DNA from: a virus
Taxonomy: Duplodnaviria > Heunggongvirae > Uroviricota > Caudoviricetes
Direction: 5' to 3' (one strand)
Length of the DNA: 64,000 nucleotides
IMG/VR virus record: IMGVR_UViG_3300030029_000205
Positions 4,804 through 56,628 of the stretch are shown in pieces (position 1 is the first letter of the stretch; each line of letters opens with the position of its first letter). Both the position numbers and the translations under genes were made by a program. Under the pieces are notes generated by a model. It was not told the origin of the DNA. It ran no database searches and saw only the letters and a program-made list of their open reading frames with translations.

Positions 4804-4819
4804 AAAGGGGTTGAGAGTT

Positions 4820-7873: not shown

Positions 7874-8383
7874 GTGTCAGTTGTAGAAGAAGTATCAAAG
7901 TCAAAACAGGGGTATAAAATGACTGTAATTAGCGGTTCAAAAGATGGTTTGGTATCAGTTAGGTTTGATGATGGTACTATTGTTAGAAACAAGCCGTACA
8001 AAGATTTTTTGGAAGGTAATATAGAAAAGCCTTTATGTAAAAAGATAGGTGAGGTGTCATATTCAAATAGCGGTGAAAAAATGGAGATTGTTTGTTATAC
8101 AAATAATGAAAATATAGCTGTAAAGTTTGAAGATGGAACAGTAGTCTATGGAAGAACATACAATGCTTTCAAAAGAGGTGAAATCAAGAAGCCAAGAATA
8201 GAAAAGTATGGTAGAAACAATAAACATAATGAAAGAATAGGTATAGAATCCATAAACTTAAATGGTTTAAAAATTAAAATAGTTGAGTACCGTAATAGTA
8301 ATGATATTGATGTAAAGACCGAGGACGGTAGGGTATTAAAACATCAGACTTTTAAAAAGTTTAAAGACGGTAAAATATATTAA
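7874..8383 (+). CDS. DIDVQFEDG-repeat protein (3 diverged repeats)
   Basis: GTG start after GAGGTGG. Repeats GEKMEIVCYTNNENIAVKFEDGTVVYGRTYNAFKRGEIKKP. Confidence 0.75.
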   Translation: MSVVEEVSKSKQGYKMTVISGSKDGLVSVRFDDGTIVRNKPYKDFLEGNIEKPLCKKIGEVSYSNSGEKMEIVCYTNNENIAVKFEDGTVVYGRTYNAFKRGEIKKPRIEKYGRNNKHNERIGIESINLNGLKIKIVEYRNSNDIDVKTEDGRVLKHQTFKKFKDGKIY

Positions 8384-8395
8384 GGGGTGTTTCAA

Positions 8396-8550
8396 TTGGG
8401 TATATTAAAGGTTTTATGTTGGATTTTCTTATGTTTGATAGGCTTGGTAATTTCGATGTTTTATGTGTTCTTTGGGTATTTGTTAGTCAGATACTTAGTA
8501 GACACACATAAAGAGAAAAAATCTAAAAGGTTAAAAGAAAAGGGTGATTG
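8396..8550 (+). CDS. small hydrophobic membrane peptide (about 51 aa)
   Basis: TTG 6 nt after AAGGGGTG. Translation LGILKVLCWIFLCLIGLVISMFYVFFGYLLVRYLVDTHKEKKSKRLKEKGD. Below the ORF-track size cutoff. Confidence 0.35.
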
Positions 8551-8726
8551 ATTTGATTGGAGATTTAAGATTTAGATATAGCTATCCTACCGTAGATATT
8601 TATGATGTATCAACAGGTATATTGATAGCAGAGATTGTAGGTATTTATGGCAATGAGTATGATAGTTATATACCAGTGGATTGGGCATATATCTATGAGT
8701 ATGATTTGTTAAGGGTATATATCTAA
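8544..8726 (+). CDS. hypothetical small protein
   Basis: 60-aa ORF. Start ambiguous: GTG 8544 or TTG 8553 after AAGGGTG. Confidence 0.4.
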   Translation: MIDLIGDLRFRYSYPTVDIYDVSTGILIAEIVGIYGNEYDSYIPVDWAYIYEYDLLRVYI

Positions 8727-8750
8727 TATAGGAAGGGGGTGTGTTTATTT

Positions 8751-9455
8751 ATGGATTTAAGGGATACTCGACCGTATTATGTAGTACATACTAAAGGAGA
8801 CTGTAAAATTTATCGTTGTTCGAAAGATTTTGATTTCTTGACCAAAGACGGTATTCCTCACAGTGTATATAAGTGCTATACAATAGAGGAGGCTAAAGCC
8901 TGTAAAAGAGGTAATAATCCCTCTGATAAGGACGCTCGTTATATATTTGATGATACAAACAATTATCCTTATGCTTTTATAGATGGTTCTTTTAATCATG
9001 CTAAAAAGGTGTATGGTTGGGGTGGTTTTATAGACTATTGGGGTACGAGGTATATGATTAAGGGTAACGGTGATAATCCTGAGTATGCAAAGTATAAATC
9101 CACAATCGGGGAAGCATTAGGGGTAATGAATGTAGTGGATAAAGCCGTTGAGTTGGGTATCACTCATTTGGTAATATACTTTGATTTTGCTCCATTAGAA
9201 ACTTGGTTATTTGAAGGGTGTAAAAGTGAAAATGAAGTAAGAAAGATATATAAAGACCATATAGAAAATGCGGTATCTGATGGGTTACATCTTATATTTA
9301 AAAAGGTAGAAGCTCATACAAAAGTAAGGGGTAACTGTATAGCTGATATGATAGCTAAGGATGCAGTAGGTGCGAAAAGGAAAAAGAAGTCTTTACCCTT
9401 TAGTTTTTTCAATGTAAGAAATACTGAAAGAGAATATGCTTTTATGCGTGTTTGA
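8751..9455 (+). CDS. rnhA: ribonuclease H1 with N-terminal hybrid-binding (HBD) domain
   Basis: ATG 8751, 11 nt after GGAAGGGGG. N-terminal YYVVHTKG..IY...F....G...YK.YT.EEA..A matches the RNase H1 HBD. Catalytic core FIDGSF, GEALGV, VEAHTKVRGNCIADMIAKDA. Confidence 0.75.
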   Translation: MDLRDTRPYYVVHTKGDCKIYRCSKDFDFLTKDGIPHSVYKCYTIEEAKACKRGNNPSDKDARYIFDDTNNYPYAFIDGSFNHAKKVYGWGGFIDYWGTRYMIKGNGDNPEYAKYKSTIGEALGVMNVVDKAVELGITHLVIYFDFAPLETWLFEGCKSENEVRKIYKDHIENAVSDGLHLIFKKVEAHTKVRGNCIADMIAKDAVGAKRKKKSLPFSFFNVRNTEREYAFMRV

Positions 9456-9462
9456 TTTTATA

Positions 9463-9495
9463 AAATGTGAGTCTTTTAAAGGCTCACATTTTTTA
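9463..9495 (+). terminator. intrinsic terminator (AATGTGAG...CTCACATT + TTTTTAT)
   Basis: 8-bp stem, then a T-tract. Confidence 0.6.
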
Positions 9496-9955
9496 TGCTT
9501 AAATATGTAAAATTCGGGAATGCAGAATTTTTATCAAATTTTAAGATACTTAATTTTAGTTAAAGAACCTATCAAAAATCATATGTTAAATGTGTACAAG
9601 ATTGAATAGAATATTTTAAAATAAGCTATCAAAATTTTGGTATGGTTTTCTCGTGGTTTATTTTTCTAAAGAAGTGTAATTTTTAAAATTGTGATAGATT
9701 GGTATTGTATGTATGGAAAAGAATAAAGGTAAAGGGTATTTAGAATTATAAACTATTAGAAATAAGAAAATATAAATTTAGATTTCAGAATGATAATTTT
9801 ACATATAACATAGTAAATTTTAGAAAGGAGAAAGAAATGATTAGTAAAAGGAATTAGTTTTTAAGATTGTATTTATTTTATAATATAGTGTTAGAAGAAT
9901 GTTGATTTACTTAATATTTTTAGTTATATTTTATGTTTGAGAGGAGAAGTATTTT

Positions 9956-11170
9956 ATGAGTTACATCTATGATAAATTAAGAGATGCTTTAGGTGGTAAG
10001 ATATTTAGGTCTGGTATAGTCTTTAAAAACTGGTCACCTAATGAGATTAGAGCTATCTACATTATGAGAGATTTTATTCTTGTTGCAGATTACCTTAAGC
10101 AACCTAAGATTATAAAATTAGATACTAATGAGGTAGCTATGGATTTATCAAATCCATCCAGAAGGGGTAATCTGAATAACCTGTTAGAGAGTCGTCATCT
10201 TTCTTGTATGGAAGAGATATATGTTGATTCTTGTTACCAGGGGTATAAGGATGTTATTGATTTGAATAGCTTTGTTCAAGGCTTATACAATCAAGCATCC
10301 CGACTGAGATATTATGGGTATGTCAGTGGTTTTTCAGTTGATGCTTTGCAGACTTTCTATTCCAGTGCCTTGATTAACGGTAGTATGGATATGACAGTGG
10401 CTAAGTCACTAAACAATTTTTCATACAATGACTTAAGTAACAAGGATTGGTATAAGAAGTATAACTTAAGACCTCAGTGGTATGATATTGACTCAGAGAA
10501 GGGTAGATTGCATACCTATTTTTCTAAATGTGAAAAACTTATAGGTGATAAAGAAACTGCTAAAGATGCTCAGATTAGTGAGTTGACTAAGATGAGTACA
10601 ATTGTTGATATGTTTAACAAAGATAGGGAAAGAGCTCAAGATATTAAGCTTTTAATGTCTTTCATTACTTTTTGTAAGGGTTGTGAAGAGTTTTCTGCAT
10701 CAGTAGCAAAATGTTTACAGAATAGTATGATAGAAAAATTAAAACCTATTAAGGGTTTATCTAAAGAGTTATTTTTGAAGGCTATGCGAACAAGTAATAT
10801 AAAGATGGGGGGAGCTGAGAAGTATTTATTTGATTTATACCAAAAGGTAGAAGTTTTTGATTCAGATGATACAACTGAGGAATTGAAAAAAGGTATAGAT
10901 GGTATATACCAATTAGGGTATAGATTAGATAGAGGCTTAGCTGATGCTTTAAATAAGAATAAAAAGAAAGAGTATTACATTTTATTCCTGTTAACCTCAG
11001 CAAGGGTAGATTTCCTACCAGAAGGATTATTTACTGCTAAGTTGGAGGAGAAATCTTTGTTAAATTGCAGTATGTGTAGTCCTGAAAAAATAGATGGTTT
11101 GATTAATTATGTATATAGTCTTTGTGGATTCTCTAAAGAAGACTATAAGAATAATATTGTAGTTGCGTAA
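9956..11170 (+). CDS. hypothetical protein
   Basis: 404-aa ORF with RBS GAGAGGAGAAG upstream, after a ~500-bp AT-rich regulatory region. Confidence 0.7.
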   Translation: MSYIYDKLRDALGGKIFRSGIVFKNWSPNEIRAIYIMRDFILVADYLKQPKIIKLDTNEVAMDLSNPSRRGNLNNLLESRHLSCMEEIYVDSCYQGYKDVIDLNSFVQGLYNQASRLRYYGYVSGFSVDALQTFYSSALINGSMDMTVAKSLNNFSYNDLSNKDWYKKYNLRPQWYDIDSEKGRLHTYFSKCEKLIGDKETAKDAQISELTKMSTIVDMFNKDRERAQDIKLLMSFITFCKGCEEFSASVAKCLQNSMIEKLKPIKGLSKELFLKAMRTSNIKMGGAEKYLFDLYQKVEVFDSDDTTEELKKGIDGIYQLGYRLDRGLADALNKNKKKEYYILFLLTSARVDFLPEGLFTAKLEEKSLLNCSMCSPEKIDGLINYVYSLCGFSKEDYKNNIVVA

Positions 11171-11188
11171 TGTCAAGGAGTGTTTTAG

Positions 11189-14100
11189 ATGAAAGAGAAG
11201 GTAATCTCTTTAAGGGTAGGTAAATTGGCTGAGGGAAAGAAATCCTTATTACCTAATGTATTCTCAGCTTTATGTGGAAATAAGGCAGGTAAGATGAAAT
11301 ATGTGGGTATAGAGGGTATAAACCTTAGAGGTTTTGAGAAGAAACTCTTAGGTGCAGATACTGATTTATATTTAGATACTCTGATAGATGCTATATCCAT
11401 TGTAGAAAATATGGGTATTAAAGATGCTGATTGTGCTTTATGTAGTAATGATAGCTTTAAAGTGGCGAAACTTTTTGGGGTACATTTAGCAACAAATCTG
11501 ACTTCTGATGAGATTATTTCTAAATGGGCATCTGAAGAGATGGTAGATGACTTTGATGTATATAAAGAAGGTAATGATTCAGATACAGATTGGGATGAAG
11601 TTGACGAAGATTATAGTGATGCTGATGATATCTATGATGACGAAGAAGAGGATATGGGTGAAGAAGAGGTATATGAGGATTCAGATGAACCTGAGGTAAA
11701 TGATGATGAGGCTGTTCTTAGGGAAGAGATAAAGAAAGTATTTAATTCTACTGTTATATCTCTTGTTTCTAAGGTAAAGAAGAGATATGATTTACTTTTT
11801 GAATCTGGGTATGACCTTGAAAGACCTTATTGTATTATAAGCGATAAGGGTAGTTTATTTGTAGATAGCGATAATGTATTAAAGATGCGTGAAAACCCCT
11901 CAAAGGATATAGATTTTAGTGCTATCTTAAATATATATGAGTTATTTGAAGGTAAGATTGGTTTTAACTTGAGTGATGCCAGGTCATCCAAGGTAATTGC
12001 TCAGGATTTATTAGAGGGGTATTTAAATGGAGGTAAGTTAGATTACTTCCCCTATAAGTTGTTGGAGTATGCTTATGGTAGAAATCCCTCAAGAGAAGAG
12101 AGTACACAATACAGTTATGCTACTTATAAAGGTCAAGGAGTAAGTACCAATTGGGGCAAGTTCGGTGATAAAGTAGTTGAAGATATTAGATTGACTGTTG
12201 AAGATGCAATTACTTCTTATTGTCTTGATGTACTTAAAACAGGTACTGAGAGAGAAAATATTAGAAGTATAATTAGAGATTCTCAGACTATTAAAAATAT
12301 TCAAAATTATATTGAATATGTAGCTGATAGTTTAAGTGTTTGTATCATTGTAACAGAATATAAAAGTATAGATGGAAAGCCAGTAATGCTGAAAATGAGG
12401 GTATGTGACCCAAGAGGCAAAGTTACTAACGGTATGACTGGTGAAATTATCAATACTGCTTTTTCGGGTAATACAGGAGGTTCCTCAGGTGCTACTTTAA
12501 ACAGTGGTTTAAACGAGTCAGATAGTATGACTTATAGGGTATTTGAGTTTGGTCACGAGTTTAATCACTCTTTAAGTAATGCTATGCCATTATTTGCTTA
12601 TAAGGCTTTTGAAAAGTTAAGAGAGAAAGGTGAAAATGTTTCCTTTAAGGACTTGATTCTTGGTCAGAGTACAGATGGAACTATACTTAGAAATGGCACT
12701 CACGGCTTAGTTTTGGATAAAAAATTATTCCATTATATTAATGCAGGTAGTAGAAGTGGTAAGGGTGTTATGACTCTAAATATGATTGCAGGAGCCCTGT
12801 TAAGCGGTAAGGCTGTAATATACTTAGATAATAAGCCTGATATGGTATCTATGTTAGCTAAGTTATGTGGTGGAGAAGAAGGAGGAAATTATAGTGGACC
12901 TCCTTTCTTTGGTATTAACGGTTCTAATAATGTAGATGACAAGCAGAAACAGTTTACGCACGAAGATGCTTGGATTAGTAGAGACAATATTCCGATAGAG
13001 GCAGTAGCTTTATTTGGAGAACCTACTTGGAGCAAGTATGGTGAAATTTTTTATATGAGAGCCTATACTTTAGCGATGGGTATTATCCTTGCTCGAGGTC
13101 TTGATGGTGGTCACGGTAAGATGAATGACCCAGCATATGGTGGTAAAGAGGGTATCTTCTTAGTTTGTGATGAAACTAATGTGTTACAAGAGAAATTCAA
13201 GGTAATTGGTCAAATTATTGCTGATAAGATACCTTTACAGGCTAAGAAGTTTAAGTCTATGTCAGCGAGTTTAGAGTCTGTATATAATGAGGCTTATTCT
13301 GAAAATGCAAGAAAGGGTGCAGAGTTAAAGTTTTTCAATGCTAAGCGTGATTTTGAAGAAGCTTTCAATGCTCATAAGTTTTATGCATTAGCATACTTGA
13401 ATACTTTATCTGACAACATTGCTTACATATATGATAAAAGCCTTGCAGGATTTTTACAGAAGGAGATGGAATGTTCTGATATTGTAATTATAGGTCAGAA
13501 TTTAGAGCAGAAACCGATATCTAAAGATACTATTACTTCCGCTGTATCAAGTGGTAGATTATCGGGTGAAGGTTCAGGAGCTAACGGCTTAGGAGGTACT
13601 CAGATAGCAAAGGATGTAAAAGGTATGGCATCGATTCCTTTTGCTCACTTTGTGTTTAGTAGTTCTGATGCTTTAATAGGGTATAATTCTTTACATCCAG
13701 AATACCTTGCTCAAACTGAGCAGAATTCAAAGGCTTTTGGAAGACTTGATTTGGTAGCTAATAACTTTTGTTATATTCCTAATTTTAAGGTTAGTGCCAG
13801 TGAAGATGATGTGCCAGGAGCTCAGTTAACTAAGAATGTAGCTAATGCAAGTACAAGCGTGTATTTCAAGCCTTATCTTATTCTCAATGATGCATCTAAG
13901 GCTTATACAGACCAGATGTTTGATAGAGTAAGAAATGCAGGGTTAACTCCAGAAGATGTTGTGTATGAGTATCCTAATGCCGATGGTAGTGATATTAGTC
14001 CGTATGTAGGATTTCCAGAGTACATGAGCTTAATGGGGGTATCAGATATACCTGAGAGATTACAAAAAGGTGCTAACATAGCTAATATGGTAGTAAGAGA

Positions 14101-26284: not shown

Positions 26285-26372
26285 GCTGGTATGGTGGAAT
26301 AGGCAGACACAAGGGACTTAAAATCCCTCGGTCATTGCGACCGTATCGGTTCAAGTCCGATTACCAGCACCA
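26285..26372 (+). tRNA. tRNA-Leu (anticodon TAA), type II with long variable arm, CCA encoded
   Basis: Acceptor GCTGGTA/TACCAGC. Anticodon stem AGGGA/TCCCT with loop CTTAAAA. Variable arm CGGTC...GACCG. T-arm TCGGTTCAAGTCCGA. Discriminator A plus CCA. Confidence 0.85.
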
Positions 26373-26517
26373 TGAGGTGGGTATTAGAGTTACCCATCTT
26401 TACATCCAAAGGTAGTCCTCCAACTACATAAAGCATTTAAATGGGTGTGTTAGGTTTTCATAAAAAAACTCTCCTAAAAGAAGTCCTTGCAATTAGTGAG
26501 TGTTGCAAGGACAACCT

Positions 26518-26591
26518 GTAGATGTAGTTTAATGGTAAAATGTCAGTTTCCCATACTGAGGTTGTGGGTTCGATTCCCATCATCTGCTCCA
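26518..26591 (+). tRNA. tRNA-Gly (anticodon CCC), CCA encoded
   Basis: Acceptor GTAGATG/CATCTGC (one G-U). D-arm GTTTAATGGTAAAAT. Anticodon stem TCAGT/ACTGA with loop TTCCCAT. T-arm GTGGGTTCGATTCCCAT. Discriminator T plus CCA. Confidence 0.6.
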
Positions 26592-26890
26592 CTGGTGATT
26601 CACCAGTTTATTATAAGAAAACCAGCTTATATGTTGCAGGTAAATTTCTTATAAAAACCTACAGAAAGCAAGTCCTTGAATAAAGGTTGAGTAGGGTAAG
26701 ATGCTTTAAAGTTATGCACCTTTAGCTTAAAGATAGCAACCGTGTAAAAACGGTAAAGACGGTAGGGTATCCATTATAGAAGGGGTTAATGGTACTCTTT
26801 ATGGTGCTAATTATTCGAGTAAAGTTTCTTCAGTAATCTTGCTCGAATACAAACTGAAGTGACCAACCCCTATATAGGGGTTGGGTATAT

Positions 26891-26958
26891 GGAGATGTAG
26901 TATAAGTAGTATCTTAGCTATGTTAAGGGTATGAGTGCAAGTCTCATCATCTTCACCA
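26891..26958 (+). tRNA. short tRNA-like element (good acceptor and T-arm, reduced D region; anticodon unresolved)
   Basis: Acceptor GGAGATG/CATCTTC. T-arm ATGAGTGCAAGTCTCAT. ACCA at the 3' end. Only 65 nt before CCA, so possibly a degenerate tRNA. Followed by a terminator at 26958-26981. Confidence 0.3.
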
Positions 26959-26981
26959 CCCATCCAGAATGGGTTATTTTT
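26958..26981 (+). terminator. small terminator hairpin (ACCCAT-ccaga-ATGGGT + TATTTTT) after tRNA-like 26891
   Basis: 6-bp stem plus T-tract. Confidence 0.45.
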
Positions 26982-27078
26982 AAAGAGTGCTTACTTTCGC
27001 TGTTTCTTTCTTTTTTGTACAAATTGATTACATAACATAACCGTTCAAATCTTTATAAAGTAAGCACTCAATTGAATA

Positions 27079-27152
27079 TGCAGAAAGTAGTTTAATGGTA
27101 GAATACCCGCCTAAGAGGAGGAAGATGCAGGTTCGACTCCTGTGTTCTGCAG
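27079..27152 (+). tRNA. tRNA-like gene, type and anticodon unresolved
   Basis: Acceptor TGCAGAA/TTCTGCA, 7 bp perfect. D-arm TAGTTTAATGGTAGAAT. T-arm GCAGGTTCGACTCCTGT. Anticodon stem pairs poorly in every register. Loop region contains CCTAAGAGG. Confidence 0.45.
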
Positions 27153-44870: not shown

Positions 44871-47800
44871 ATGGTGAATTTAAATTCAACAAAATGTAAG
44901 TTAATAGCATTTTTGTTAGCTGTTATGACTGTAATATCTATGTGCACTAATGCCATAGCAGTATGGGGTAACGATAGCAAATATGGTATTAAGGTACTTG
45001 ACGAGTCTGTAATAGGCAGAATCGATGAAGAAATCGATACTGGTTATATTATAAATGGTAAGACTCTTCAGTTAGATTGTAGTGATTGTGATTGGGAAAA
45101 TATCTCAAAAATTGAAGTTATCAATGAGAAAAATCACAAGAGCAAGTTAACTGAAAAAGGTATCTTAGATGTGCCTAAAGAAAATGGTACATATACTGTT
45201 GTAATTACATACAAAGATGGTGTAAGTACAAAAGATGAAGCAGTAAAAACTAAAAGCACTGCAGATGAGGCTGTAAAAGAGGTTTCTTTCCCGTTAAAGG
45301 ATATTACTTCTTTCTCAACAGTAAAATATGACAAATATGGTACAAAAATCTACTCGGTGTATATAGGTAGAAACCTGATGTCAGAGGGTAGTTGGTTAAC
45401 GGATAAAGTTGCCACAATTTCAATAAATACAAATTTACCTAAAGATGAAATGGTAAAAACTAAAGTGTTGTTAAATGGTAATGAGGCAATTACAGAATTA
45501 AAAGATAAGAAAATTTATGTACAAAGAAAAAATGTATCTTTGCAGAGAGAAAATAAATTAGAGGTTTACATTACTAATTTATATGGTACAGAGTTCAGTT
45601 ACACTTTGAATTTTAAATTTGATAATACAAATGTAAAAGTATCTGATGCTGAGATAAGTGGTAAGACAGCATATCTTGAAGATACTTTACTTGCTGAAAA
45701 AGGTGCTACTGTTAATGTACCAGTAGATTCTGGTGATTTATCAATTTCTTCTGTAGAAGTGTTAAAAGAAGACGAATTGTACGCTAATAGTAATACCTTT
45801 AAATTAAATGATGAGGGGTATTATTCAATAAGGGTAACTAAGGAGTCAGGAAAAGTATCAGTCTTTAACCTTTTTGATGGTAAAAAGGTTGTTTTTGATA
45901 CTGAGAGTCCTAAGTTAGTATCTTCAAAGTATAATGATGCTGATTTTGATACTGATTCTTGGTATAATAAGGAAGGTGTTCTGTCATTTATTGCAAAAGA
46001 TAATATAGCTTTATCAAAAAACTATACTTTAGTAGTAAATGGCAAGGATTATACTTGTGATATCAAAGAACTTGAAGATGATACTTACAGCTATAATATA
46101 GATACAACTTTATGGGATAAAAATGAAGAAGGTATTTATAAAATTGCTCTTACAGCGGAAGATTTAATGGGTAATGAGTTAAATATTTCTACTGTACTGA
46201 AACTTGATACTATTAAACCGAGTTATCATGGGGTTACTGTTGAGAGTGACAGTCAAATTGATAATGTATATTACTTTAAAGATGAAATTACCTTAAAAGG
46301 TCAATTCTCGGACAAAGGCTCAGGGGTAAAAACAGTAAGCTATAAAGATACTGATGATGAAGATTTTAAAGAAATCTCATTACCGTTCAAGACAAAAGGT
46401 CAGGGTACTTTCAAGGTAGAAGATGTTGCAGGTAATATATCTACTTATACTACTGGAGAATTATTAACTCTGTTGGGGGTATCACCCTATGTGGTAGATG
46501 ATGACAATCCTGTAATTGTCAGAAACAGTTTAGATGTACCTTATACAAAAGATGGTGAAGATTATCTTTCAAAAAAGCCAATCTTAACATACAAAGTTAC
46601 TGATAGTAATATGAAATCAGTAGATTTTTACATTAATGGTGTATTACAGGATAGTACATATAATGTAAATGATTTATATCAGTTTAGTACAAACGGTATT
46701 TCTGATGGAAAAAATACCGTAAAGGTAGTTGCTACCGATAAAGCAAACCATGTTTCAGAAGATGTGTACTCTTTTGTTTTAGATAAATCAGCTCCTAAAA
46801 ACATACAGGTGAAGGCTGATAAACCTACAAATGAAAAACAGGGTAATGTTTATTATCAGGAAGATTTAAATGTAAATATTTCTGCGGAAGATAAAACATC
46901 AGGCATTAAATATTATAGTCTTAATGGTAATAACACAGACAAAGGTAATTTTACTATTACTGAAGATGGTTCTTACAAGTTTAATGTATATGATAATTTA
47001 GGTAATAATATAGGTAATACTCCATTATCTGATTACACAGGTTGGGATGGCAATAACATTGTTATTGATAGAAATAATCCTGTTATTGAGGCAAAAAGAC
47101 CTGAGGGTAGTAAGGATGATTGGTTTGATAAGAATGTAGTATATAATGTGTCAATATCAGATGACAAAGGTATTAATTCAGCATATATTACTATTAACGG
47201 AATCAAGGTAGCTACTTTTGAAACAGATAAAACTGATGTAAAGACAGCAACTTTATCTGCTGATACCTCTTTAGTAAAGCCAAACTATGATGGTAGTTAT
47301 GATATTAAGGTCTATACAGAAGATAATAGTAAACGAAATGCATCTTGGTCAGATAAGGTATATATTGATACCGACGCTCCTACTGATATAGTTGTTGATT
47401 GCGAAACCCCATCTAATGAAAAAGGTGGTAATGTTTATTTTAAAAACAGTTTTTACATTCAGGTTTCTGCAAGTGATGATTATGCAGGTATTAGTAAATA
47501 CTATTTAAATGATACAGAAGTCAATGATTCTGGTAGATTTCTTATTGAGGCTAATGGTTCATATACTGTAAGTGTAGAAGACAAAATGGGTAATAAATCA
47601 AAACCCATAACCTTACAAGAGTTGCTTGGTTGGCAGGGGAATAACATTGTTATAGACGGCAATAAACCTGTATTTGATGCAAGCAGACCTAACGGGGAAG
47701 ATACCGAAAACAAGAATTGGTATAAGAAAGATGTAGTATATTCTGTAAAAATTACAGATGATGAGGGTATTAACTTTGCTTATATGAAAGTTAATGGTTT

Positions 47801-50800
47801 AACAGTTTCAGAGTTTACCACTGATGATACTAATGTAAAATCTAATACCTTATCTTTAGATACCTCTAAGGTAGCACCAGATAGTAAAGGTGCTTATGCT
47901 ATTGATGTATACACAGAAGATAATTGTAAAAACGAAAACAGCTGGTCAGATACTATATATGTAGATTACAAGCCCCCTTATAACTTATCTGCTACATCCA
48001 CCACACCAAAGAAAGAAAAGGGTGGAAATGTTTATTTTAACGAGGATGTTGCTTTATCTGTAAAGGCTGTAGACGATTATGTTGGTTTAAAGGGTTTTAA
48101 ACTTAATGGAAAAGAATCAACAACGGGTAAATATACTTTAACTACTGATGGGGAATACTCAATTACTGCTTATGATAAATTATATAATGAGTCAGGTAAG
48201 TATTCTTTACAGTCTTTATTAGGTTGGAGTGGAAATAATGTAGTCATTGATGATAGTAAACCTGTAATTTCAGCTCCAAGACCCTCAGGTGAGAGTTCTA
48301 TAAAGAAAAATTGGTATGGCAAAGATGTAGTTTATAATATCTCAGTATCCGACAACAAGGGTATAGATAATGCTTATGTTACTATCAATGGCGAAAAGGT
48401 TGATAGTTATTATACAGCTGAAACTAATGTTAAAAATATCAGTTTAAAGGCAGATACTTCTAAGGTTGGTGCTAACTCAGATGGTAGTTACAATATTAAA
48501 GTGTATGCTGAAGATAACGGTACTTTAAGTGCTGTATTTGAAGATACAATTTATATAGACACTACTAATCCTGTAGTTGCGAATTTTGGTATATTTGGAG
48601 ATATAAGTAGAACAGGAAAGACTGTCAATGGCGGTGGAAACTATGGTTTTTACTTTGATGGTAAAGGCTCTGTTCAGGTACAGGTAAAAGATGAGGGTAT
48701 CTCATCAGGTATTTACTCTATTTGGACAAAGTTAAATGGTCAAGATTGGGTAGAGCATAAGACAAATGGTGATACCGTTTGTTATGTTGATGTACCTGCT
48801 AATTATAAAGGTTTTGTTGAAGCTTATGTAGTTGATAATGTAGGTCATAAGAGTGGTGTAAATAAACCAGATGGTTTAGTATCAGAGACATCAACCGCCC
48901 ATAAGGGTAGTTCTAAGGTAGCAATTACCTTACCTAAGGAAGTAAGTTTCGATGAAAACAATGTGCCATTGTATAGTGGTAGTCTTACGACAGATGTATA
49001 TGTATCTTGTGATTGGTCTGGTTTAAAGAAGTTAGACTGGGGTATCAACAATACTACATATGGTACAATTACAGACTTCAGTAATGCATCTTCGTGGGAT
49101 AAAAACTTACCTTTAAGCTTTAATAGTAAGTTTAATTTAGATGGTAATGAAAGTTCTATGAAGTTTTGGGTAAGAATAACTGATAGAACTAACCATACTA
49201 CTGAGAATGATAGATTATTTAGTATAGACAAGGTAAAGCCTGTTATCTCAGTATCTTATAATACCACAGAGAGTAATAGTTATTACAATAAAGATAGAGT
49301 TGCAAACATTACGGTAACTGAGAGAAATTTTGATTCTTCTAAATTTGAAGTATCAGGAACAGCAGGAGTTCTTGGTAGTTGGTCAAGAAATGGAGATACT
49401 TGGTCAAATACTATGACATTTAGTGGTAATACTGATTACAAGTACACTTTGAGATGTACTGATAGAGCTAATAATGTTTCAGATGCTTATACAAGTGAGT
49501 CATTTACAGTAGATAAGGTAAATCCAACATTGTCTGTATCTTGGGATAATAACAGTGTTTTAAATGGTAATTATTACAAGTCTGCAAGAACTGCAACATT
49601 AACAGTAGTAGAGCATAATTTTGATGCATCTTTAATTAATGTTGCTAATGCTACTGTAAGTGGTTGGAGTAATAATGGTGATGTGCATACTGCTAATATT
49701 ACTTTCAATTCTGATGGGGAGTATGACTTTACTGTAAGTGGTAAAGATAAAGCAGGTAATAGCTTTGATTCTAATTATAAAAGTGGTACTTTTATAATTG
49801 ATACGGTAAAGCCTAATATAGAGATACTTGGTGTATCAAATGGTGTGTCTTATAAGAAGGATGTATCCATTAGGGTATCTTTAAGTGATAAGTATTTAAA
49901 TAGTGATAACATTTCTGTAAGATTGTACGGTAAGAACCATAAAGAAAAGTATTTAATCGGTGTAAGTGCAGGAAATACTATTACTTATTCATATGATGCT
50001 TTTCCAAAGGATAAGGATACTGACGATGTATATACATTGGAGGTAGTTGGAAGCGACCTTGCAGGAAACATCATGAAAGAGGAAAGGGTATTCTCTGTAA
50101 ATAGATTTGGTTCGGAATACAAATTTATAGAGGAAGGGTATCTCGGTAATTACTTAAATACTTCTAAAGATATTTCAATCTCAGAGTTAAATGTAGATAA
50201 GATTGATACATCTAAGGTTAAGTTTGTTGTAACTTTAAATGGTAAAAATATTGATATAGATTCCAAATATATTACTATTTCCGAAGAAGAGAAAGATGGT
50301 AGGTATTTATATACTTATACAATTAGTAAAGATGCCTTTACTGAGGACGGTAAATATGTTATTCAGGTATATTCAGAGTCTGATGATGGTACAGAATATA
50401 CAAGTGTAGCGGAAGAATATAATTTTGTAATAGATACTCAAAAACCAGTAATTCTTGTATCAGGTGTAGAAAGTAATAACATTTATCAGGATTATAATAG
50501 AAAAGTAACTGTGGATGTAAGAGACTTTTCTGGTGTAAAGAGTATTTCAGTAATTCTTAACGGTAAAGCTATTGAGTACACTGTTGAAGGTGATATGTAT
50601 GTATTTACAATACCTGAGAGTACTGATAGACAAAGTTTGGTAGTAAAAGTTACAGACCTTGCAGGAAATTCTAACGAAATAAAGGTGGATAATTTCCTTA
50701 TTTCTTCAAATACTTGGGTATATCTGATTAATCAGATTTGGTTTAAGGTATTAATAGTGTTAGTTGCTCTTGCAATTATAGGTTTGATAGTATTACTTAT

Positions 50801-51005
50801 TGTAAGAAAGCGTAAAGATATTAAAAATGAAGAGATGCTTGCTAAAGAGAATGAAAAGTATTACAAGAGTTCAGGTGCAAGTTCTTCAGGCAATTCTTTA
50901 GGTGATAAGGATGAAACAGAGTTAATGTCAAATGCTGATACCAATAAGGGTACTGATGTTGTAAACAATGATGATAATGATTCCAATACAGATATGCTTG
51001 AATAA
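44871..51005 (+). CDS. 2044-aa surface protein: signal peptide, many Ig-like/adhesin-type repeat modules, C-terminal TM anchor and acidic cytoplasmic tail
   Basis: RBS TTAGGAGG. Signal peptide MVNLNSTKCKLIAFLLAVMTVISMCTNAIA. Repeated ~290-aa modules (…DTDAPTDIVVD..PSNEKGGNVYF..., IDxNKPVIxAxRP...). TM VLIVLVALAIIGLIVLLIV followed by RKRKD and a D/N-rich tail. Confidence 0.85.
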   Translation: MVNLNSTKCKLIAFLLAVMTVISMCTNAIAVWGNDSKYGIKVLDESVIGRIDEEIDTGYIINGKTLQLDCSDCDWENISKIEVINEKNHKSKLTEKGILDVPKENGTYTVVITYKDGVSTKDEAVKTKSTADEAVKEVSFPLKDITSFSTVKYDKYGTKIYSVYIGRNLMSEGSWLTDKVATISINTNLPKDEMVKTKVLLNGNEAITELKDKKIYVQRKNVSLQRENKLEVYITNLYGTEFSYTLNFKFDNTNVKVSDAEISGKTAYLEDTLLAEKGATVNVPVDSGDLSISSVEVLKEDELYANSNTFKLNDEGYYSIRVTKESGKVSVFNLFDGKKVVFDTESPKLVSSKYNDADFDTDSWYNKEGVLSFIAKDNIALSKNYTLVVNGKDYTCDIKELEDDTYSYNIDTTLWDKNEEGIYKIALTAEDLMGNELNISTVLKLDTIKPSYHGVTVESDSQIDNVYYFKDEITLKGQFSDKGSGVKTVSYKDTDDEDFKEISLPFKTKGQGTFKVEDVAGNISTYTTGELLTLLGVSPYVVDDDNPVIVRNSLDVPYTKDGEDYLSKKPILTYKVTDSNMKSVDFYINGVLQDSTYNVNDLYQFSTNGISDGKNTVKVVATDKANHVSEDVYSFVLDKSAPKNIQVKADKPTNEKQGNVYYQEDLNVNISAEDKTSGIKYYSLNGNNTDKGNFTITEDGSYKFNVYDNLGNNIGNTPLSDYTGWDGNNIVIDRNNPVIEAKRPEGSKDDWFDKNVVYNVSISDDKGINSAYITINGIKVATFETDKTDVKTATLSADTSLVKPNYDGSYDIKVYTEDNSKRNASWSDKVYIDTDAPTDIVVDCETPSNEKGGNVYFKNSFYIQVSASDDYAGISKYYLNDTEVNDSGRFLIEANGSYTVSVEDKMGNKSKPITLQELLGWQGNNIVIDGNKPVFDASRPNGEDTENKNWYKKDVVYSVKITDDEGINFAYMKVNGLTVSEFTTDDTNVKSNTLSLDTSKVAPDSKGAYAIDVYTEDNCKNENSWSDTIYVDYKPPYNLSATSTTPKKEKGGNVYFNEDVALSVKAVDDYVGLKGFKLNGKESTTGKYTLTTDGEYSITAYDKLYNESGKYSLQSLLGWSGNNVVIDDSKPVISAPRPSGESSIKKNWYGKDVVYNISVSDNKGIDNAYVTINGEKVDSYYTAETNVKNISLKADTSKVGANSDGSYNIKVYAEDNGTLSAVFEDTIYIDTTNPVVANFGIFGDISRTGKTVNGGGNYGFYFDGKGSVQVQVKDEGISSGIYSIWTKLNGQDWVEHKTNGDTVCYVDVPANYKGFVEAYVVDNVGHKSGVNKPDGLVSETSTAHKGSSKVAITLPKEVSFDENNVPLYSGSLTTDVYVSCDWSGLKKLDWGINNTTYGTITDFSNASSWDKNLPLSFNSKFNLDGNESSMKFWVRITDRTNHTTENDRLFSIDKVKPVISVSYNTTESNSYYNKDRVANITVTERNFDSSKFEVSGTAGVLGSWSRNGDTWSNTMTFSGNTDYKYTLRCTDRANNVSDAYTSESFTVDKVNPTLSVSWDNNSVLNGNYYKSARTATLTVVEHNFDASLINVANATVSGWSNNGDVHTANITFNSDGEYDFTVSGKDKAGNSFDSNYKSGTFIIDTVKPNIEILGVSNGVSYKKDVSIRVSLSDKYLNSDNISVRLYGKNHKEKYLIGVSAGNTITYSYDAFPKDKDTDDVYTLEVVGSDLAGNIMKEERVFSVNRFGSEYKFIEEGYLGNYLNTSKDISISELNVDKIDTSKVKFVVTLNGKNIDIDSKYITISEEEKDGRYLYTYTISKDAFTEDGKYVIQVYSESDDGTEYTSVAEEYNFVIDTQKPVILVSGVESNNIYQDYNRKVTVDVRDFSGVKSISVILNGKAIEYTVEGDMYVFTIPESTDRQSLVVKVTDLAGNSNEIKVDNFLISSNTWVYLINQIWFKVLIVLVALAIIGLIVLLIVRKRKDIKNEEMLAKENEKYYKSSGASSSGNSLGDKDETELMSNADTNKGTDVVNNDDNDSNTDMLE

Positions 51006-51166: not shown

Positions 51167-51200
51167 AGTATCATAAAATAAAAGTTGGAGGTAAATTACA

Positions 51201-51770
51201 ATGAAAGCAGGTTTATATACAAGAGAAATTAGAAGGTATTTAGAAAACAGAACTGATGAGGGTAGAAACAGATTACTGTTAGTTTTTATTCCCTTTATTG
51301 ATAATATAGCAGAGTCTTACATATCGGATAATAAGGGTATCATTACTGAAGTTGAAGACTTTAAGCAGACTTTATATGTATGTACTATGGAGTTTATTGA
51401 AAATTATAACTACTTGGCAACTAACAGTGTATCTACATTTAAACAACGCTTGGAAAAGCATTTAAATGCTGACATTAACAGGTATGTTAAGAGTTTAAAT
51501 AGAAATTTAGAAGTAGCAGTATGGTTTGATACTGATAAAAATGACTTTGATTTTATTAAAGCTTATGAAGATGAGTTTGCTTTTAAGGAGTTAGTAAAAG
51601 CATTAGAGTATTTGACTCCCAGAGAGAAGCAGATTATAATGTGGAGGTATTTTGATTGTTTTACTCTTGACAAGATAGCAGATTATTATAATATCTCAAG
51701 AAATAGAGTTAAAATGATTATAGATAAAGCAATTTTTAAATTACAAAAATATACAAAGGTGCTTGTATAA
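51201..51770 (+). CDS. sigma-70-family (ECF-like/phage) sigma factor
   Basis: Region 4: EYLTPREKQIIMWRYFDCFTLDKIADYYNISRNRVKMIIDKAIFKLQK. Promoter AGGAAATACTTGCAA-N17-TAAAAT at 51138-51166. Confidence 0.75.
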   Translation: MKAGLYTREIRRYLENRTDEGRNRLLLVFIPFIDNIAESYISDNKGIITEVEDFKQTLYVCTMEFIENYNYLATNSVSTFKQRLEKHLNADINRYVKSLNRNLEVAVWFDTDKNDFDFIKAYEDEFAFKELVKALEYLTPREKQIIMWRYFDCFTLDKIADYYNISRNRVKMIIDKAIFKLQKYTKVLV

Positions 51771-52106: not shown

Positions 52107-53165
52107 ATGGAAAAGAAGAAAACAGCAGCAGATATTTTAATTGAGGCTTTTTTAAAGGATGTTGACGAAAGAGGTACAATGCCTTGGCAGAGACCATATG
52201 AGAGATATAATGCTTTTAATTGGTATACAAAGAAAGCTTACAGAGGATTTAATAGACTTCTCTTACCATTTGGAGAGTATCTTACAAAAAACCAAATAAC
52301 TAAGTATAATGCTGAGAAAGGGTATATTGAATTATACGAAAATGGTAGGTTGAAAAATATAACTCCTCAGGCTTACTATATGCAGAAGGGTATTAAGTGG
52401 TTACCAGTAGTATTTTTTAAGGTGGATAAGAAATCAAGTAGCAGGGAAGAAATAGCTGAAAACTTTCCTGACTTTGATAAGTTTAATTCAGATGAAATTG
52501 CTTATGCAGGAAGAAAGAACGGATACTTATATTATGTTGAAAAGGGTAAATGTATTAAATCCCGAAACATTTTAAGATATTATGATGTAGCTGACAGGAA
52601 GCATTTCAGAAATGCTAATGGTGACTATCTACCATCCAGAATTGAAACAGGTGAGGTAGAGATAACTAAATCTGATGCTAAAGAAGTAATGGATAATTAC
52701 ATAAACCTTTCAGGTGTAAAGGTAGATTATAAGAATTATGGCACTCCTTGTTATGTACCAGAGTGGGATTTGGTTAGATTAAATCCTCTTACTAAATCTG
52801 AAGATGCTTGGTTTTCCACTGCATTTCACGAATTGGCTCATAGTACAGGGGCAGCATCAAGGTTGAACAGAAAGGGTGTTGTCTCACCAAGTGTAATGAG
52901 AGAATCTACATATGCTGTAGAAGAGTGTATTGCTGAAATCACAGCTTGTCTATGTTGTGCAGAGACAGGTATTTCAGATTTTGAGACCTCTTGTTCTGAG
53001 GAGTATGATAACAGTGTATCATATGTTCAGGCTTGGAAGAAAAGAGTAAAAGACTGGGGTAAAAATTTTATTTACATTGTATCTCAGGCTGATAAGGCTT
53101 TCAATATGATATGTGGTGCACCTGACAGTGTTGCACTTGATGAGGATGGTCAGGAAATAGAATAA
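52107..53165 (+). CDS. ardC: ArdC-like antirestriction protein (ssDNA-binding N-domain plus zincin-like metalloprotease C-domain)
   Basis: N-terminal MPWQRPY...KAYRGFNRLLL (ArdC-N). C-terminal FHELAHSTGAASRLNR (HExxH followed by a RLNR-type motif). Confidence 0.7.
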   Translation: MEKKKTAADILIEAFLKDVDERGTMPWQRPYERYNAFNWYTKKAYRGFNRLLLPFGEYLTKNQITKYNAEKGYIELYENGRLKNITPQAYYMQKGIKWLPVVFFKVDKKSSSREEIAENFPDFDKFNSDEIAYAGRKNGYLYYVEKGKCIKSRNILRYYDVADRKHFRNANGDYLPSRIETGEVEITKSDAKEVMDNYINLSGVKVDYKNYGTPCYVPEWDLVRLNPLTKSEDAWFSTAFHELAHSTGAASRLNRKGVVSPSVMRESTYAVEECIAEITACLCCAETGISDFETSCSEEYDNSVSYVQAWKKRVKDWGKNFIYIVSQADKAFNMICGAPDSVALDEDGQEIE

Positions 53166-53222: not shown

Positions 53223-53612
53223 ATGACAATATTTCAGTATTTAAAATGTATGGGTAAAATTGAGGACTTTGTTAAAAGGGTTTATGAGAAGTCACAGTCA
53301 AGGAACTGGTGGGTATTTGAAACACCTGAGTGGTCTTTTGTAGACGGGAAAGAAAAGGTTCTGATAAAAGGTAAGAAGTACAATTTATCCAACATCTTGT
53401 GTAACGATGTGACTTCTGCGGAGTTAAAAAGTATGACGGATAAAGTGTTGGATTTGATAGCGACTAAGAAGGGTTTAAATAAGAGTACCATCGCTAAAAT
53501 AAAGGTAACAGGTGTATCTGTTTATATATATATTTTGAAGGTGAAGATGAAAACGATTGGAGAAGTGGAAAATATTATACTCTTAGTGACATATATGATA
53601 TGTGTGAACTAA
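53223..53612 (+). CDS. hypothetical protein
   Basis: RBS AAGGAG. Confidence 0.6.
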   Translation: MTIFQYLKCMGKIEDFVKRVYEKSQSRNWWVFETPEWSFVDGKEKVLIKGKKYNLSNILCNDVTSAELKSMTDKVLDLIATKKGLNKSTIAKIKVTGVSVYIYILKVKMKTIGEVENIILLVTYMICVN

Positions 53613-54379
53613 AAAAGCCAGTGAAATCAGATAACCCTTTCAAAGAGTATCAGATTGTTGATAAAGGTACTGGTATGGTGATAAATCCAGAATGGGTAGC
53701 ACTAAATGCTACCTCAATACTTTCTGAGTTAAAATATCAGGGTTTTGAGTTGTTATTAAAACAACATATAATTTCGAGGGAAGGTAAGGAAGAGTATTAT
53801 TACCTTTTGGTGCATAAAGCAGGGGTAATAGTGACTTTAAATGACATAAAAGGGTTCTATCCTAAACTAAAAGGTAGTATGTTCATTATATGTAACGGTA
53901 ACTCTAAAAATCTTCACTCTATCCTCAAAGAATGGGATGGAGGCGGAAACTGTTTTAGAAAGAACATATATTTAGGTATTACAAATGAACTAAGAAAAGC
54001 GTATGATTTGTCAGACGTAAAGTGGGTATGTGAACTTTCAGATAGTAGTGTATTATCCTCTTTTTGTATATACAGTGGAGCGGATTGTTTAGAGTATTTA
54101 GGAGGTTCTATAAGAGAGGAAAAAGGTGGTGACAATAAATGCTATATGTTAGACGACGCTTTTAGTAGTGTTGAGTTAAGTATGTTTTGTAGCTATTATG
54201 AAAATATGGTTATTTTTAATAAAATCTCTCAAAACAAGTTAAAAGTACCAGTAAGAGAATTTAACAAGTGTTATAACGATAGAATAGCAGCCTTTAAAGA
54301 AAAGTACCCCTCTGAGTGTTATCTTATGTCAGAGTGTGCTAAAAGAATAGACGAGGCTTATGGGGTAACTAATAAATAA
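53600..54379 (+). CDS. hypothetical protein
   Basis: 259-aa ORF overlapping the previous gene. Confidence 0.65.
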   Translation: MCELKKPVKSDNPFKEYQIVDKGTGMVINPEWVALNATSILSELKYQGFELLLKQHIISREGKEEYYYLLVHKAGVIVTLNDIKGFYPKLKGSMFIICNGNSKNLHSILKEWDGGGNCFRKNIYLGITNELRKAYDLSDVKWVCELSDSSVLSSFCIYSGADCLEYLGGSIREEKGGDNKCYMLDDAFSSVELSMFCSYYENMVIFNKISQNKLKVPVREFNKCYNDRIAAFKEKYPSECYLMSECAKRIDEAYGVTNK

Positions 54380-54433
54380 TTCTATTTTAAGATTTGTAAA
54401 AAACTTGTCTAAAAAAATATTTGTATTTGAGTT

Positions 54434-54461
54434 TCAATGTATATTAAAATATATACATTGA
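54434..54461. promoter_or_regulatory. perfect 11-bp inverted repeat TCAATGTATAT-taaaat-ATATACATTGA (candidate operator) in promoter region
   Basis: Palindrome centred on a TAAAAT -10-like hexamer. Preceded by TTGTAT about 18 nt upstream. Confidence 0.4.
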
Positions 54462-54647
54462 AAATTTGAGGTAGTTTGTATAAATAAAAAGGAGAATAGT
54501 ATGGATATTTTACTTTATTTAGATAGAATGTGTAAAATTGAGGAATACCTTACAAGAGAATTAGGGTATTCTAAGTCAAGAGATTGAGAATTTTCAAACC
54601 TGAATAGAATAAAGGTTGGAAAGAAGTATTATAAGGTTCCAAGTATC

Positions 54648-55979
54648 TTGCAGGAGAATGTTTCTGATAGGGAATTGCGTAAGCAGTCGAGTTATGTAAT
54701 TTCAAAGATTGCAAAATTAAGAAAGATTCCTACATCCAATATTATAAGTATGGAAGTAACCAGAAATGGTATTAAACTAAAAGTAAAGGGTAAAGGAACT
54801 GTATTTGTAAACCTAAACAGTTTGATGGTTACATTTAATAAGGATATTCCGTATGCTTTACCTTTTCCAGGTCAGTCTTTTATAGATGATACAGATGAGA
54901 ATAATCTTTTTGCAACTCTGAATTATTTGAAGGCTTATGGCTTTGAACAAATCTTTACAAAAACTATAGATTACAGTGGAATGCTTAATGATTATTATAT
55001 GTATGCTAACAAGATTGGTGTTATTATTGTAGTCAATAAGGTTAAGTACAAAGATTCAAATATAAGTAATATCAAAGGGTATGCTTTTCTGTTTGGAAAA
55101 AAGAAGTATAACTTTGAAGCTAAAGATTTAATTGATGATTACGGAACTGTTATTGAAGATAGAGATGGTTGTCTTGTTATAAATCTTGGTGCTATGTTTA
55201 CTAATGATATGAATGATTTTTGCAGAGGTACTAACTTTGAGTTTTATGGGTTAAGAGACTTAAGTAATGAGCAGATAGCAATCTTTAGTAGATACGCTCA
55301 TTTCAGTAGTATGAGTAATATACCTGCCGAGTTAATAAGAATTAAAACTATTGTAGAAGAGTCTGTACCGACTGAAAATATAACACAGATATGTTGTGAC
55401 CCCTATTTAATGGATTATAGTAAAGTATTGCAACTCAACAAGGTATTTAATGATGTTACAAATAGTACAAAGGATGATGATTATAGAAATCTGCTTAATT
55501 GTATCTATGTGTATAGTAGATATCTTTATACTAAGTATAAATTAAAGCATCCTAATAATTTTTATATCTTGGGAGAATGTTCAGGTTTAATTGATAATAT
55601 TTATTACGATGGCAAGGTAAAGATAGATGTTTCTAATCTTATTCCAAGTAAATTAAAGTATGTTTTGAGGCACGATGATTTTGATTGTTATTATTTGTTG
55701 TTTAATAAGGATGTAGGAACAAAGTTAGTGGATAGGGTACTTCTTGAATTTAAATCCTTTACTCAACGAGATAGAATTGATTGTAAGGTAGTTGTTAATG
55801 AGGACAATTTGTATGATATGTTTTCCGAGTTATGTCCTTATGGTTTAAGAGGTCTTATTCTTTATATTAATAGTAGTGGTTCTGTTGTAGCATACAAGTG
55901 TCAGTTTGGTTATATTAATGTTTTTGATGCTAATATGTTTAGTTGGGAGGTAGTTAAAAATGACAGCATCTACCGTTGA
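54648..55979 (+). CDS. hypothetical protein; same frame as upstream 28-codon ORF 54501-54587, separated only by an in-frame TGA
   Basis: No RBS of its own. Strong RBS AAAAGGAG sits in front of ATG 54501, whose frame runs MDILLYLDRMCKIEEYLTRELGYSKSRD-TGA-EFSNLNRIKVGKKYYKVPSILQENVSDREL... Confidence 0.65.
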   Translation: MQENVSDRELRKQSSYVISKIAKLRKIPTSNIISMEVTRNGIKLKVKGKGTVFVNLNSLMVTFNKDIPYALPFPGQSFIDDTDENNLFATLNYLKAYGFEQIFTKTIDYSGMLNDYYMYANKIGVIIVVNKVKYKDSNISNIKGYAFLFGKKKYNFEAKDLIDDYGTVIEDRDGCLVINLGAMFTNDMNDFCRGTNFEFYGLRDLSNEQIAIFSRYAHFSSMSNIPAELIRIKTIVEESVPTENITQICCDPYLMDYSKVLQLNKVFNDVTNSTKDDDYRNLLNCIYVYSRYLYTKYKLKHPNNFYILGECSGLIDNIYYDGKVKIDVSNLIPSKLKYVLRHDDFDCYYLLFNKDVGTKLVDRVLLEFKSFTQRDRIDCKVVVNEDNLYDMFSELCPYGLRGLILYINSSGSVVAYKCQFGYINVFDANMFSWEVVKNDSIYR

Positions 55980-56628
55980 GAGATATCACAAAGGTGCTTT
56001 ATTTCTTACAGGTAAAGGAAAGATTGTACTTTATTGTGGTAATTCTCCTAAGACTGGTGAAAAGACCTATCTTTGGGTAGATAATGCAATCTATTCTGAA
56101 GAGAATGGTAATTACAATATTGTAAATTGGGATATTATTCGCTCAAGGTTATTTGAAAACATAGACTTGTTGATATCAAGGGGTACTACAATTATGTTAA
56201 AGGAGACTCCATATTCTTTAAAGCTGTTTTTAGGTTACATACAGCAACAGAGTCCTACTTTAGTAAATTTTCTTAGCGGTTTTAAAGATGTTAAGACTTC
56301 TACAAATACAATCGAAGGTTTCAAACCAGGGTATTTGTACAAGAAGATAAAAACTGGAGAAACCTATGTATATTTGGGGAATTTAGTTGTATCGATAAAT
56401 AGTAGGTATAGAGTTAAAGGCGGAGTTCGTAAGGTACATTTGTTTATGTACTATACTAAGGGTGATGCATATTATTACGATTTTGAAGATGTCCTCAATT
56501 CAAGATTGGGTTTTGGGTATGACGGTAACTTTTCAATTAACTTCAAAAAGAGTGATGTTGAAGAAGTAGGTAAGGTTATTGATGAAAAATTCATACCTAT
56601 TGATAAAGAAAAGGTACTACATCTTTAA
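55960..56628 (+). CDS. hypothetical protein
   Basis: Overlaps the upstream gene. RBS GGGAGG. Confidence 0.7.
   Translation: MTASTVERYHKGALFLTGKGKIVLYCGNSPKTGEKTYLWVDNAIYSEENGNYNIVNWDIIRSRLFENIDLLISRGTTIMLKETPYSLKLFLGYIQQQSPTLVNFLSGFKDVKTSTNTIEGFKPGYLYKKIKTGETYVYLGNLVVSINSRYRVKGGVRKVHLFMYYTKGDAYYYDFEDVLNSRLGFGYDGNFSINFKKSDVEEVGKVIDEKFIPIDKEKVLHL

Follow-up and report, generated by a model that had tools for sequence, protein, structure and literature searches.

An in-frame TGA in a conserved 492-codon gene of an uncultivated phage is very probably a strain-specific nonsense allele

Programmed readthrough is characterized by a conserved stop codon, a functional short product and a minor extended product, and the leaky UGA of the RNA phage Qbeta gives the coat-protein extension A1. 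Another use of this codon is seen in the TGA-recoded phages of Borges et al. (bioRxiv 10.1101/2021.08.26.457843). In-frame TGAs are numerous there and cluster in the structural and lysis genes, suppressor tRNAs are frequent, the stop had been depleted before it was recoded, and the gain in coding density under code 4 exceeds 5% for contigs of at least 100 kb and 10% for contigs of 5–100 kb. Phage genes may also simply be broken, among others by loss-of-function alleles through which phages escape host defence systems, as in the laboratory escaper phages that had a frameshifted gam or an inactivated methylase (bioRxiv 10.1101/2022.08.27.505566).

We examined a TGA located at 54585..54587 (+ strand) of a 64,000-nucleotide stretch of phage DNA, referred to here as the window, and compared it with these systems. 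The TGA is very probably a natural, strain-specific nonsense allele, W29* (TGG→TGA), by which a conserved 492-aa gene would have lost its function. As in readthrough of the Qbeta type, the UGA is followed by a long open frame and Trp is the residue likely to be inserted; unlike it, none of the orthologs has the stop, and termination would leave only 28 aa of a folded domain. The source phage resembles the code 4 gut phages in its low GC, gut type, similar genome size and TGA at a conserved Trp, whereas those phages have many in-frame TGAs in structural and lysis genes and here there is one, in the replication/early region; moreover, TGA is a common true stop here, the one at codon 29 is private to one strain and no suppressor tRNA was seen in the window or 10 kb on either side of it. 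With phage nonsense and escape alleles the locus shares a single transition from sense to stop in a gene that is otherwise whole, further frameshift and deletion alleles that arose independently in other lineages, and a variable accessory region with an anti-restriction-type (ArdC-like) gene adjoining. Unlike those of laboratory escapers, the alleles here come from metagenome assemblies, and two adjacent paralogs are hit together.

The source phage is uncultivated, with a genome of about 185–195 kb and 32% GC, and contigs of 183–200 kb carry the genes described below. All genes of the window are on the + strand. The 492-codon gene belongs to the replication/early/accessory part of the genome, with helicases, a primase, SbcCD-like proteins, RNase H, RecJ, a ParB-like protein, a Ser/Thr kinase, a sigma factor, an ArdC-like protein and FEN. 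A blastn comparison of this region with 50,697 phage records found no match, and tblastn with the helicase for annotated relatives gave at most 26% identity. The region beside the ArdC-like gene (window 52107–53165) is a variable accessory island. In a more distant relative, L002, a gene for a 1011-aa LRR_5/Ig protein (8219–11254 of that sequence) is inserted between the 222-aa and FEN genes. Two other genes of the window were recorded in passing: a 2044-aa protein with Big_13 Ig-like domains (44871–51005), which stands in the middle of the replication/early block and is kept in all relatives, and a 401-aa ORF (4811–6016) with a partial match to phrog_1582, for which BLAST self-offset matches (~75% identity, offset ~165 nt) indicate tandem repeats of ~55 aa.

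The gene starts with the ATG at 54501–54503, and its Shine-Dalgarno AAAAGGAG (54487..54494, + strand, 6-nt spacer) is kept in the orthologs L001, L003, L009 and L011. Codons 1–28 (54501..54584, MDILLYLDRMCKIEEYLTRELGYSKSRD) align with residues 1–28 of the intact 492-aa proteins P0001–P0003. Beyond the TGA the frame is open and nearly unchanged through the remaining 463 codons and their own terminator, TGA 55977–55979 (54588..55979), and 492 sense positions are counted in total from ATG 54501. This arrangement, including the strong RBS, had been described in the first-pass annotation and is exact in the sequence. At 32% GC composition, 463 codons would stay open by chance with a probability of only ~2e-19, and the 28-codon and 463-codon parts are thus one coding sequence, whose full-length reading across the site is ...SKSRDWEFSN... 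(SKSRDWEFSNLNR). The first-pass annotation had likewise proposed a single gene of about 500 aa; it is one gene, although its size is 492 aa, with orthologs of 491–492 aa.

The same signals bear on whether there could be two genes here, with a 28-codon leader or uORF that regulates a separately started 443-aa gene, or, as a related option, selenocysteine insertion at the UGA. The strong RBS ahead of the short ORF and the TTG at 54648 are in line with two genes. Nevertheless, no in-frame start beyond the TGA (TTG 54648, TTG 54675, ATG 54750, TTG 54822 and ATG 54825) is preceded by a Shine-Dalgarno in the searched interval 54588–54900. TTG 54648, where the mechanically called ORF 54648–55979 begins, has only a weak AAGG ahead, which agrees with the earlier remark that this ORF has no RBS of its own, while genes nearby carry AAGGAG or GGAGG. 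A separately started product would also lack the N-terminal ~100 residues, which are the only part predicted to fold with confidence and the part with the clearest BLAST similarity to the neighboring paralog. Orthologs split into two genes, the second with a start of its own at the site corresponding to 54648, would have spoken for this arrangement, but all orthologs are one continuous ORF with Trp at the site. Selenocysteine recoding was rejected, as no SECIS-like hairpin was detected 3′ of the UGA and the orthologous residue is Trp rather than Cys or Sec. Taken with its selenocysteine variant, the two-gene arrangement has a probability close to negligible.

At its 3′ end, the broken gene overlaps by 20 nt with a 222-aa gene (55960..56628, + strand) that has its own GGGAGG at 55945–55950 and is intact in every lineage. 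On the other side, 40 nt upstream of the ATG, there is a 10-bp perfect inverted repeat, CAATGTATAT-N6-ATATACATTG (54435..54460, + strand), which is kept in relatives, occurs once in the window where none is expected by chance, and might serve as an operator or form an RNA hairpin; it is treated here as context rather than as part of the lesion. The intergenic region (54380–54500) also shows a 14-nt deletion at ~54431 relative to L001, L009 and L011 (TATAGTAAATCTAT). This deletion is common to the window strain and L016, in both of which both genes are disrupted, yet L003, in which 13 nt are missing at this site, has intact genes.

The conceptual full-length product was used as a query against 5.8 billion protein clusters, and only four clusters were returned. 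Three of them (P0001–P0003) hold intact 492-aa proteins with 96, 91 and 89% identity, all with Trp at position 29. The truncated remainder of the window gene is recorded within a cluster of 203 members, of which the others listed are 491–492 aa long. DNA was compared for eight non-identical relatives (L001–L006, L009 and L011), with 87–98.4% nucleotide identity to the window. In all eight the gene has 491–492 codons and codon 29 is TGG, so the sense codon that the first-pass annotation had proposed to look for at the site is Trp. The window differs there by a single G→A transition at 54587, A being the derived base. The Trp at the W29 position is moreover invariant across both paralog subfamilies in our alignment A8.

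The values of dN/dS are 0.12–0.24 for all pairs and 0.14–0.24 between the window and the orthologs, and, judged from these sequences, the gene is functional in the relatives and under purifying selection. Only four codons are private to the window allele, namely W29*, A209D and two synonymous ones, and the lesion is young. Of the explanations offered in the first-pass annotation, a recent nonsense mutation in one gene is the one borne out by the single 491–492-aa orthologs with TGG and by the few private codons.

A sequencing or assembly error, with G as the true base at 54587, was another of those explanations. A difference of one base is what the simplest error would produce, and the allele is supported at the level of assembled contigs, from datasets (ERR912140 and JGI 3300045988) that may be related samples. 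Still, the same TGA is present in contigs of other datasets that are 100% identical to the window: L007, L010 and L015 from a 116.7-kb contig of Logan ERR912140, and L008, which carries the TGA, from the 184,950-bp contig of JGI 3300045988 to which L013, also 100% identical, belongs. The identity of the carriers L007, L008, L010 and L015 to the window spans 8.8–11.6 kb, and the same base was therefore obtained from two or more datasets that had been assembled with different pipelines, with identity over at least 8.8 kb in each case. Truncated products are recorded on ~6–7 contigs, the remainder being called with 409 aa on 4–5 contigs from Logan/ENA and with 443 aa on 2 from JGI. Random error is also not expected to place both of the disruptive differences found in 21 kb in two adjacent paralogous genes, nor would it account for the independent lesions that other lineages bear in the same two genes, both described below. 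We consider an error highly improbable.

The position of the stop exactly on a conserved Trp could also be explained if TGA is read as Trp through a phage suppressor system, in a code-4-like and possibly incipient manner, so that TGG→TGA is effectively synonymous. Gut phage clades of 150–210 kb do include TGA→Trp recoders, with a code switch at >90% ANI, and just 35% of the TGA-recoded genomes yielded a suppressor tRNA (bioRxiv 10.1101/2021.08.26.457843). To cover more of the genome, the strain was extended by 10 kb on each side with L013 and L010, which match the window at 100% throughout their overlap with it, giving 83.6 kb; ~100 kb, including the presumed late/structural module, lies outside this part. 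Within the 83.6 kb, TGA terminates 16 of the 71 ORFs of at least 100 codons, against 48 for TAA and 7 for TAG, TAG being thus the rarer of the two minor stops. In the window alone, TGA terminates 12 + strand ORFs of 80 codons or more, and it is also the terminator of the gene itself, here and in 7 of the 8 orthologs.

Only one in-frame TGA junction was found in the 83.6 kb. The TGA at 54585 is the sole TGA between two long open segments of the same frame, in the window as in the 83.6 kb, apart from the TGA stop at 28850, which is followed by a minor tail of 30 codons. Two further same-frame junctions, at 3706 and 41898 (TAA), were considered and turned out to be ordinary gene boundaries with an RBS and an ATG. 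When TGA is taken as sense, the + strand ORF length in the window rises by 2.4%, which is below the 5–10% of the coding-density criterion, although the two measures differ. A global code 4 or 25 is rejected for the 83.6 kb by these three results together, that is the TGA-ended ORFs, the single junction and the small gain in length.

ARAGORN detected no suppressor tRNA, and thus no tRNA(UCA), in the window or its ±10 kb, and no tRNAs at all in five flanking or related loci. The window does contain a small tRNA cluster at 26285–27152, with Leu(taa), Gly(ccc) and Leu(aag), in a 2.7-kb stretch poor in long ORFs. The site also lies among replication/early genes, whereas the recoding described by Borges et al. 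is found mostly in the structural and lysis genes and leaves out replication regions. Only one strain has the TGA, against ~200 cluster members that are called at 491–492 aa. None of the recoding features of Borges et al. was seen in the 83.6 kb of the strain. The recoded TGA envisaged in the first-pass annotation is thus disfavored by a stop private to one strain, by the frequent use of TGA as a true terminator and by the lack of a suppressor tRNA in the window ±10 kb. A phage suppressor system of this kind is very unlikely, and that the TGA marks incipient TGA→Trp recoding has at most a very slim chance.

Programmed readthrough, also raised in the first-pass annotation, does not fit a stop that is private to one strain. 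A search downstream of the TGA revealed neither a readthrough-stimulating structure nor a SECIS-like hairpin: the 89 nt after the stop gave z=0.31 with an MFE of −12.4 kcal/mol, which was equalled or surpassed by 117 of 200 shuffles.

Immediately upstream of the 492-codon gene, an adjacent paralog (53223..54379, + strand) is itself split in the window strain, where two ORFs (53223–53612 and 53600–54379) replace the intact gene of relatives (373–391 aa by the start called). The two proteins match by BLASTP with E=2e-8 over the N-terminal ~100 aa, and by hhalign with 96% probability and E=2e-9, target residues 1–368 being aligned with the whole paralog; from this span, the target consists of the paralog core plus a C-terminal extension of ~124 aa. 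The paralog is one intact gene in L001, L003, L005, L006, L009 and L011. Its frame is broken in the window by a 2-bp TA insertion within a (TA)5 run (53523..53532, + strand), where relatives have CATATATA. Over 21 kb compared with the closest relatives (98.1–98.4% identity), this insertion is the only frame-breaking indel in coding sequence and W29* the only premature stop, while the lengths of all other genes agree.

Both genes are disrupted by other lesions in other lineages (codon numbering follows the L011 reference unless stated). In L016 (ERR13986035), the paralog has an inserted A at codon 26 and a lost T at codon 86, and the target has lost a T at codon 341, all outside homopolymer runs. 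The paralog of L019 (ERZ28658966) has GAG→TAG at codon 65 and its target a 5-nt deletion at codon 334; L021 (DRR171886) has the same paralog stop as L019, and its sequence ends before the target gene. L020 (ERR10101779) has lost a T at codon 36 of the paralog and 106 nt from codon 21 of the target. In L017 and L018 (ERZ28638051 and SRR32147892), TGG→TAG at codon 29 (own numbering) and two later 1-nt deletions are found in the paralog and the target is intact, while in L002 the paralog is absent and the target intact. We do not claim that the same Trp was hit in the paralog of L017, as BLAST and hhalign disagree on which Trp of the paralog corresponds to W29.

By this count, the 492-aa gene has been inactivated independently at least four times and the paralog at least five times, with different lesions in different lineages, and the disrupted lineages are scattered among intact ones. 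The flanking genes (sigma factor, 106-aa gene, ArdC-like, 222-aa, 59-aa and FEN) have their normal length, with one exception. The sigma-70 region-4 gene at 2018–2338 of L017/L018 (ortholog of window 51195–51770) has an internal deletion of ~140 nt and is called there with 106 aa versus 189 aa. L019 and L020 are 99.5% identical across both genes and have no lesion in common, with flanks that are 2.2% divergent, which suggests a recent recombinational exchange of the paralog-plus-target segment between backbones.

Disabling lesions are concentrated in the two genes, with 12 of 13 falling within this 30% of the sequence (P ~1e-3, after one ascertainment lesion per lineage was discounted). The target was never found broken without the paralog being broken as well (4/0 vs 2/6, one-sided Fisher P=0.03), a co-occurrence statistic that is biased by locus retrieval, as several disrupted lineages were retrieved via their truncated proteins. 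Taken at the level of these alleles, the paired genes are a lineage-restricted accessory module that has been inactivated repeatedly and independently in natural populations.

These alleles also bear on the idea that W29* is a leaky hypomorph, in which near-cognate tRNA-Trp reads the UGA at a low but useful rate, so that expression is tuned down and not abolished. TGG→TGA is the sole nonsense change at which near-cognate decoding gives back the original residue, and a UGA reporter in wild-type E. coli was read through at about 2% at 37 °C and 4% at 25 °C, in a competition between Trp-tRNA(Trp) and RF2 (PMC10570021); this is an E. coli figure and may not be that of the host. The frame beyond the stop is fully intact, as for a tolerated or leaky stop, but this is equally expected from the recency of an allele with four private codons. 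Elsewhere the same gene was destroyed by frameshifts and a 106-nt deletion, which cannot be read through, and the paralog is frameshifted in the window strain itself, a pattern that points to loss; nor is there a stimulatory structure in the 89 nt 3′ of the stop. We consider a leaky hypomorph unlikely. The frameshift and deletion alleles of the other lineages speak for loss rather than tuning as the relevant phenotype.

Nothing meaningful was found for the 492-aa protein in Pfam, PHROGs, NCBIfam or PDB, and a profile search of 1.84 billion representatives returned two clusters only, that of the query itself and that of the paralog, which has ~240 members. AF2 models had a pLDDT of 37 with 3 sequences and 42 with 11, with residues 1–104 alone at ~64–84, and W29 is placed in the model within the first beta-strand. 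Foldseek against PDB and BFVD gave no match at E<=0.001; the best ones were weak and PUR-repeat-like, with E ~0.09, and are uninterpretable.

If W29* is a loss-of-function allele, ribosomes starting at ATG 54501 would terminate after 28 codons, MDILLYLDRMCKIEEYLTRELGYSKSRD would be the whole translated product of the gene and the protein would be lost. As the remaining 463 codons have no start preceded by a Shine-Dalgarno, the gene would be essentially knocked out. By analogy with E. coli, at most a few percent of the ribosomes might insert Trp at the UGA by near-cognate tRNA-Trp and restore the wild-type protein. The overlapping 222-aa gene is probably still expressed, given its own GGGAGG.

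The pair may have been lost through neutral decay, as a module that is dispensable, or through selection against proteins that a host defence senses, in the manner of the laboratory escaper phages. A more specific possibility, which we regard as rather doubtful, is that the 492-aa gene and its paralog form a co-functional module under recurrent positive selection for loss, e.g. by host defence sensing. Escape from CRISPR was also considered and dropped, since a 20-mer around the site matched four unrelated genomes with no flanking repeats, which looks like chance.

The finding is real but ordinary, very probably a young nonsense allele of one 492-codon gene. The locus should be annotated as a disrupted 492-codon gene, in contrast to the public calls of a 28-aa ORF plus a 409- or 443-aa ORF, and a TGA signature that resembles recoding, readthrough or selenocysteine insertion would here be a plain knock-out allele. 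The loss of this ORFan pair beside an ArdC-like gene in at least 4–5 lineages, with the neighbors intact, points to a conditionally costly or dispensable module and makes the pair a candidate for work on anti-defence or defence triggers. If defence sensing is indeed the cause, W29* and the frameshift and deletion alleles would be natural escape mutations visible in metagenomes.
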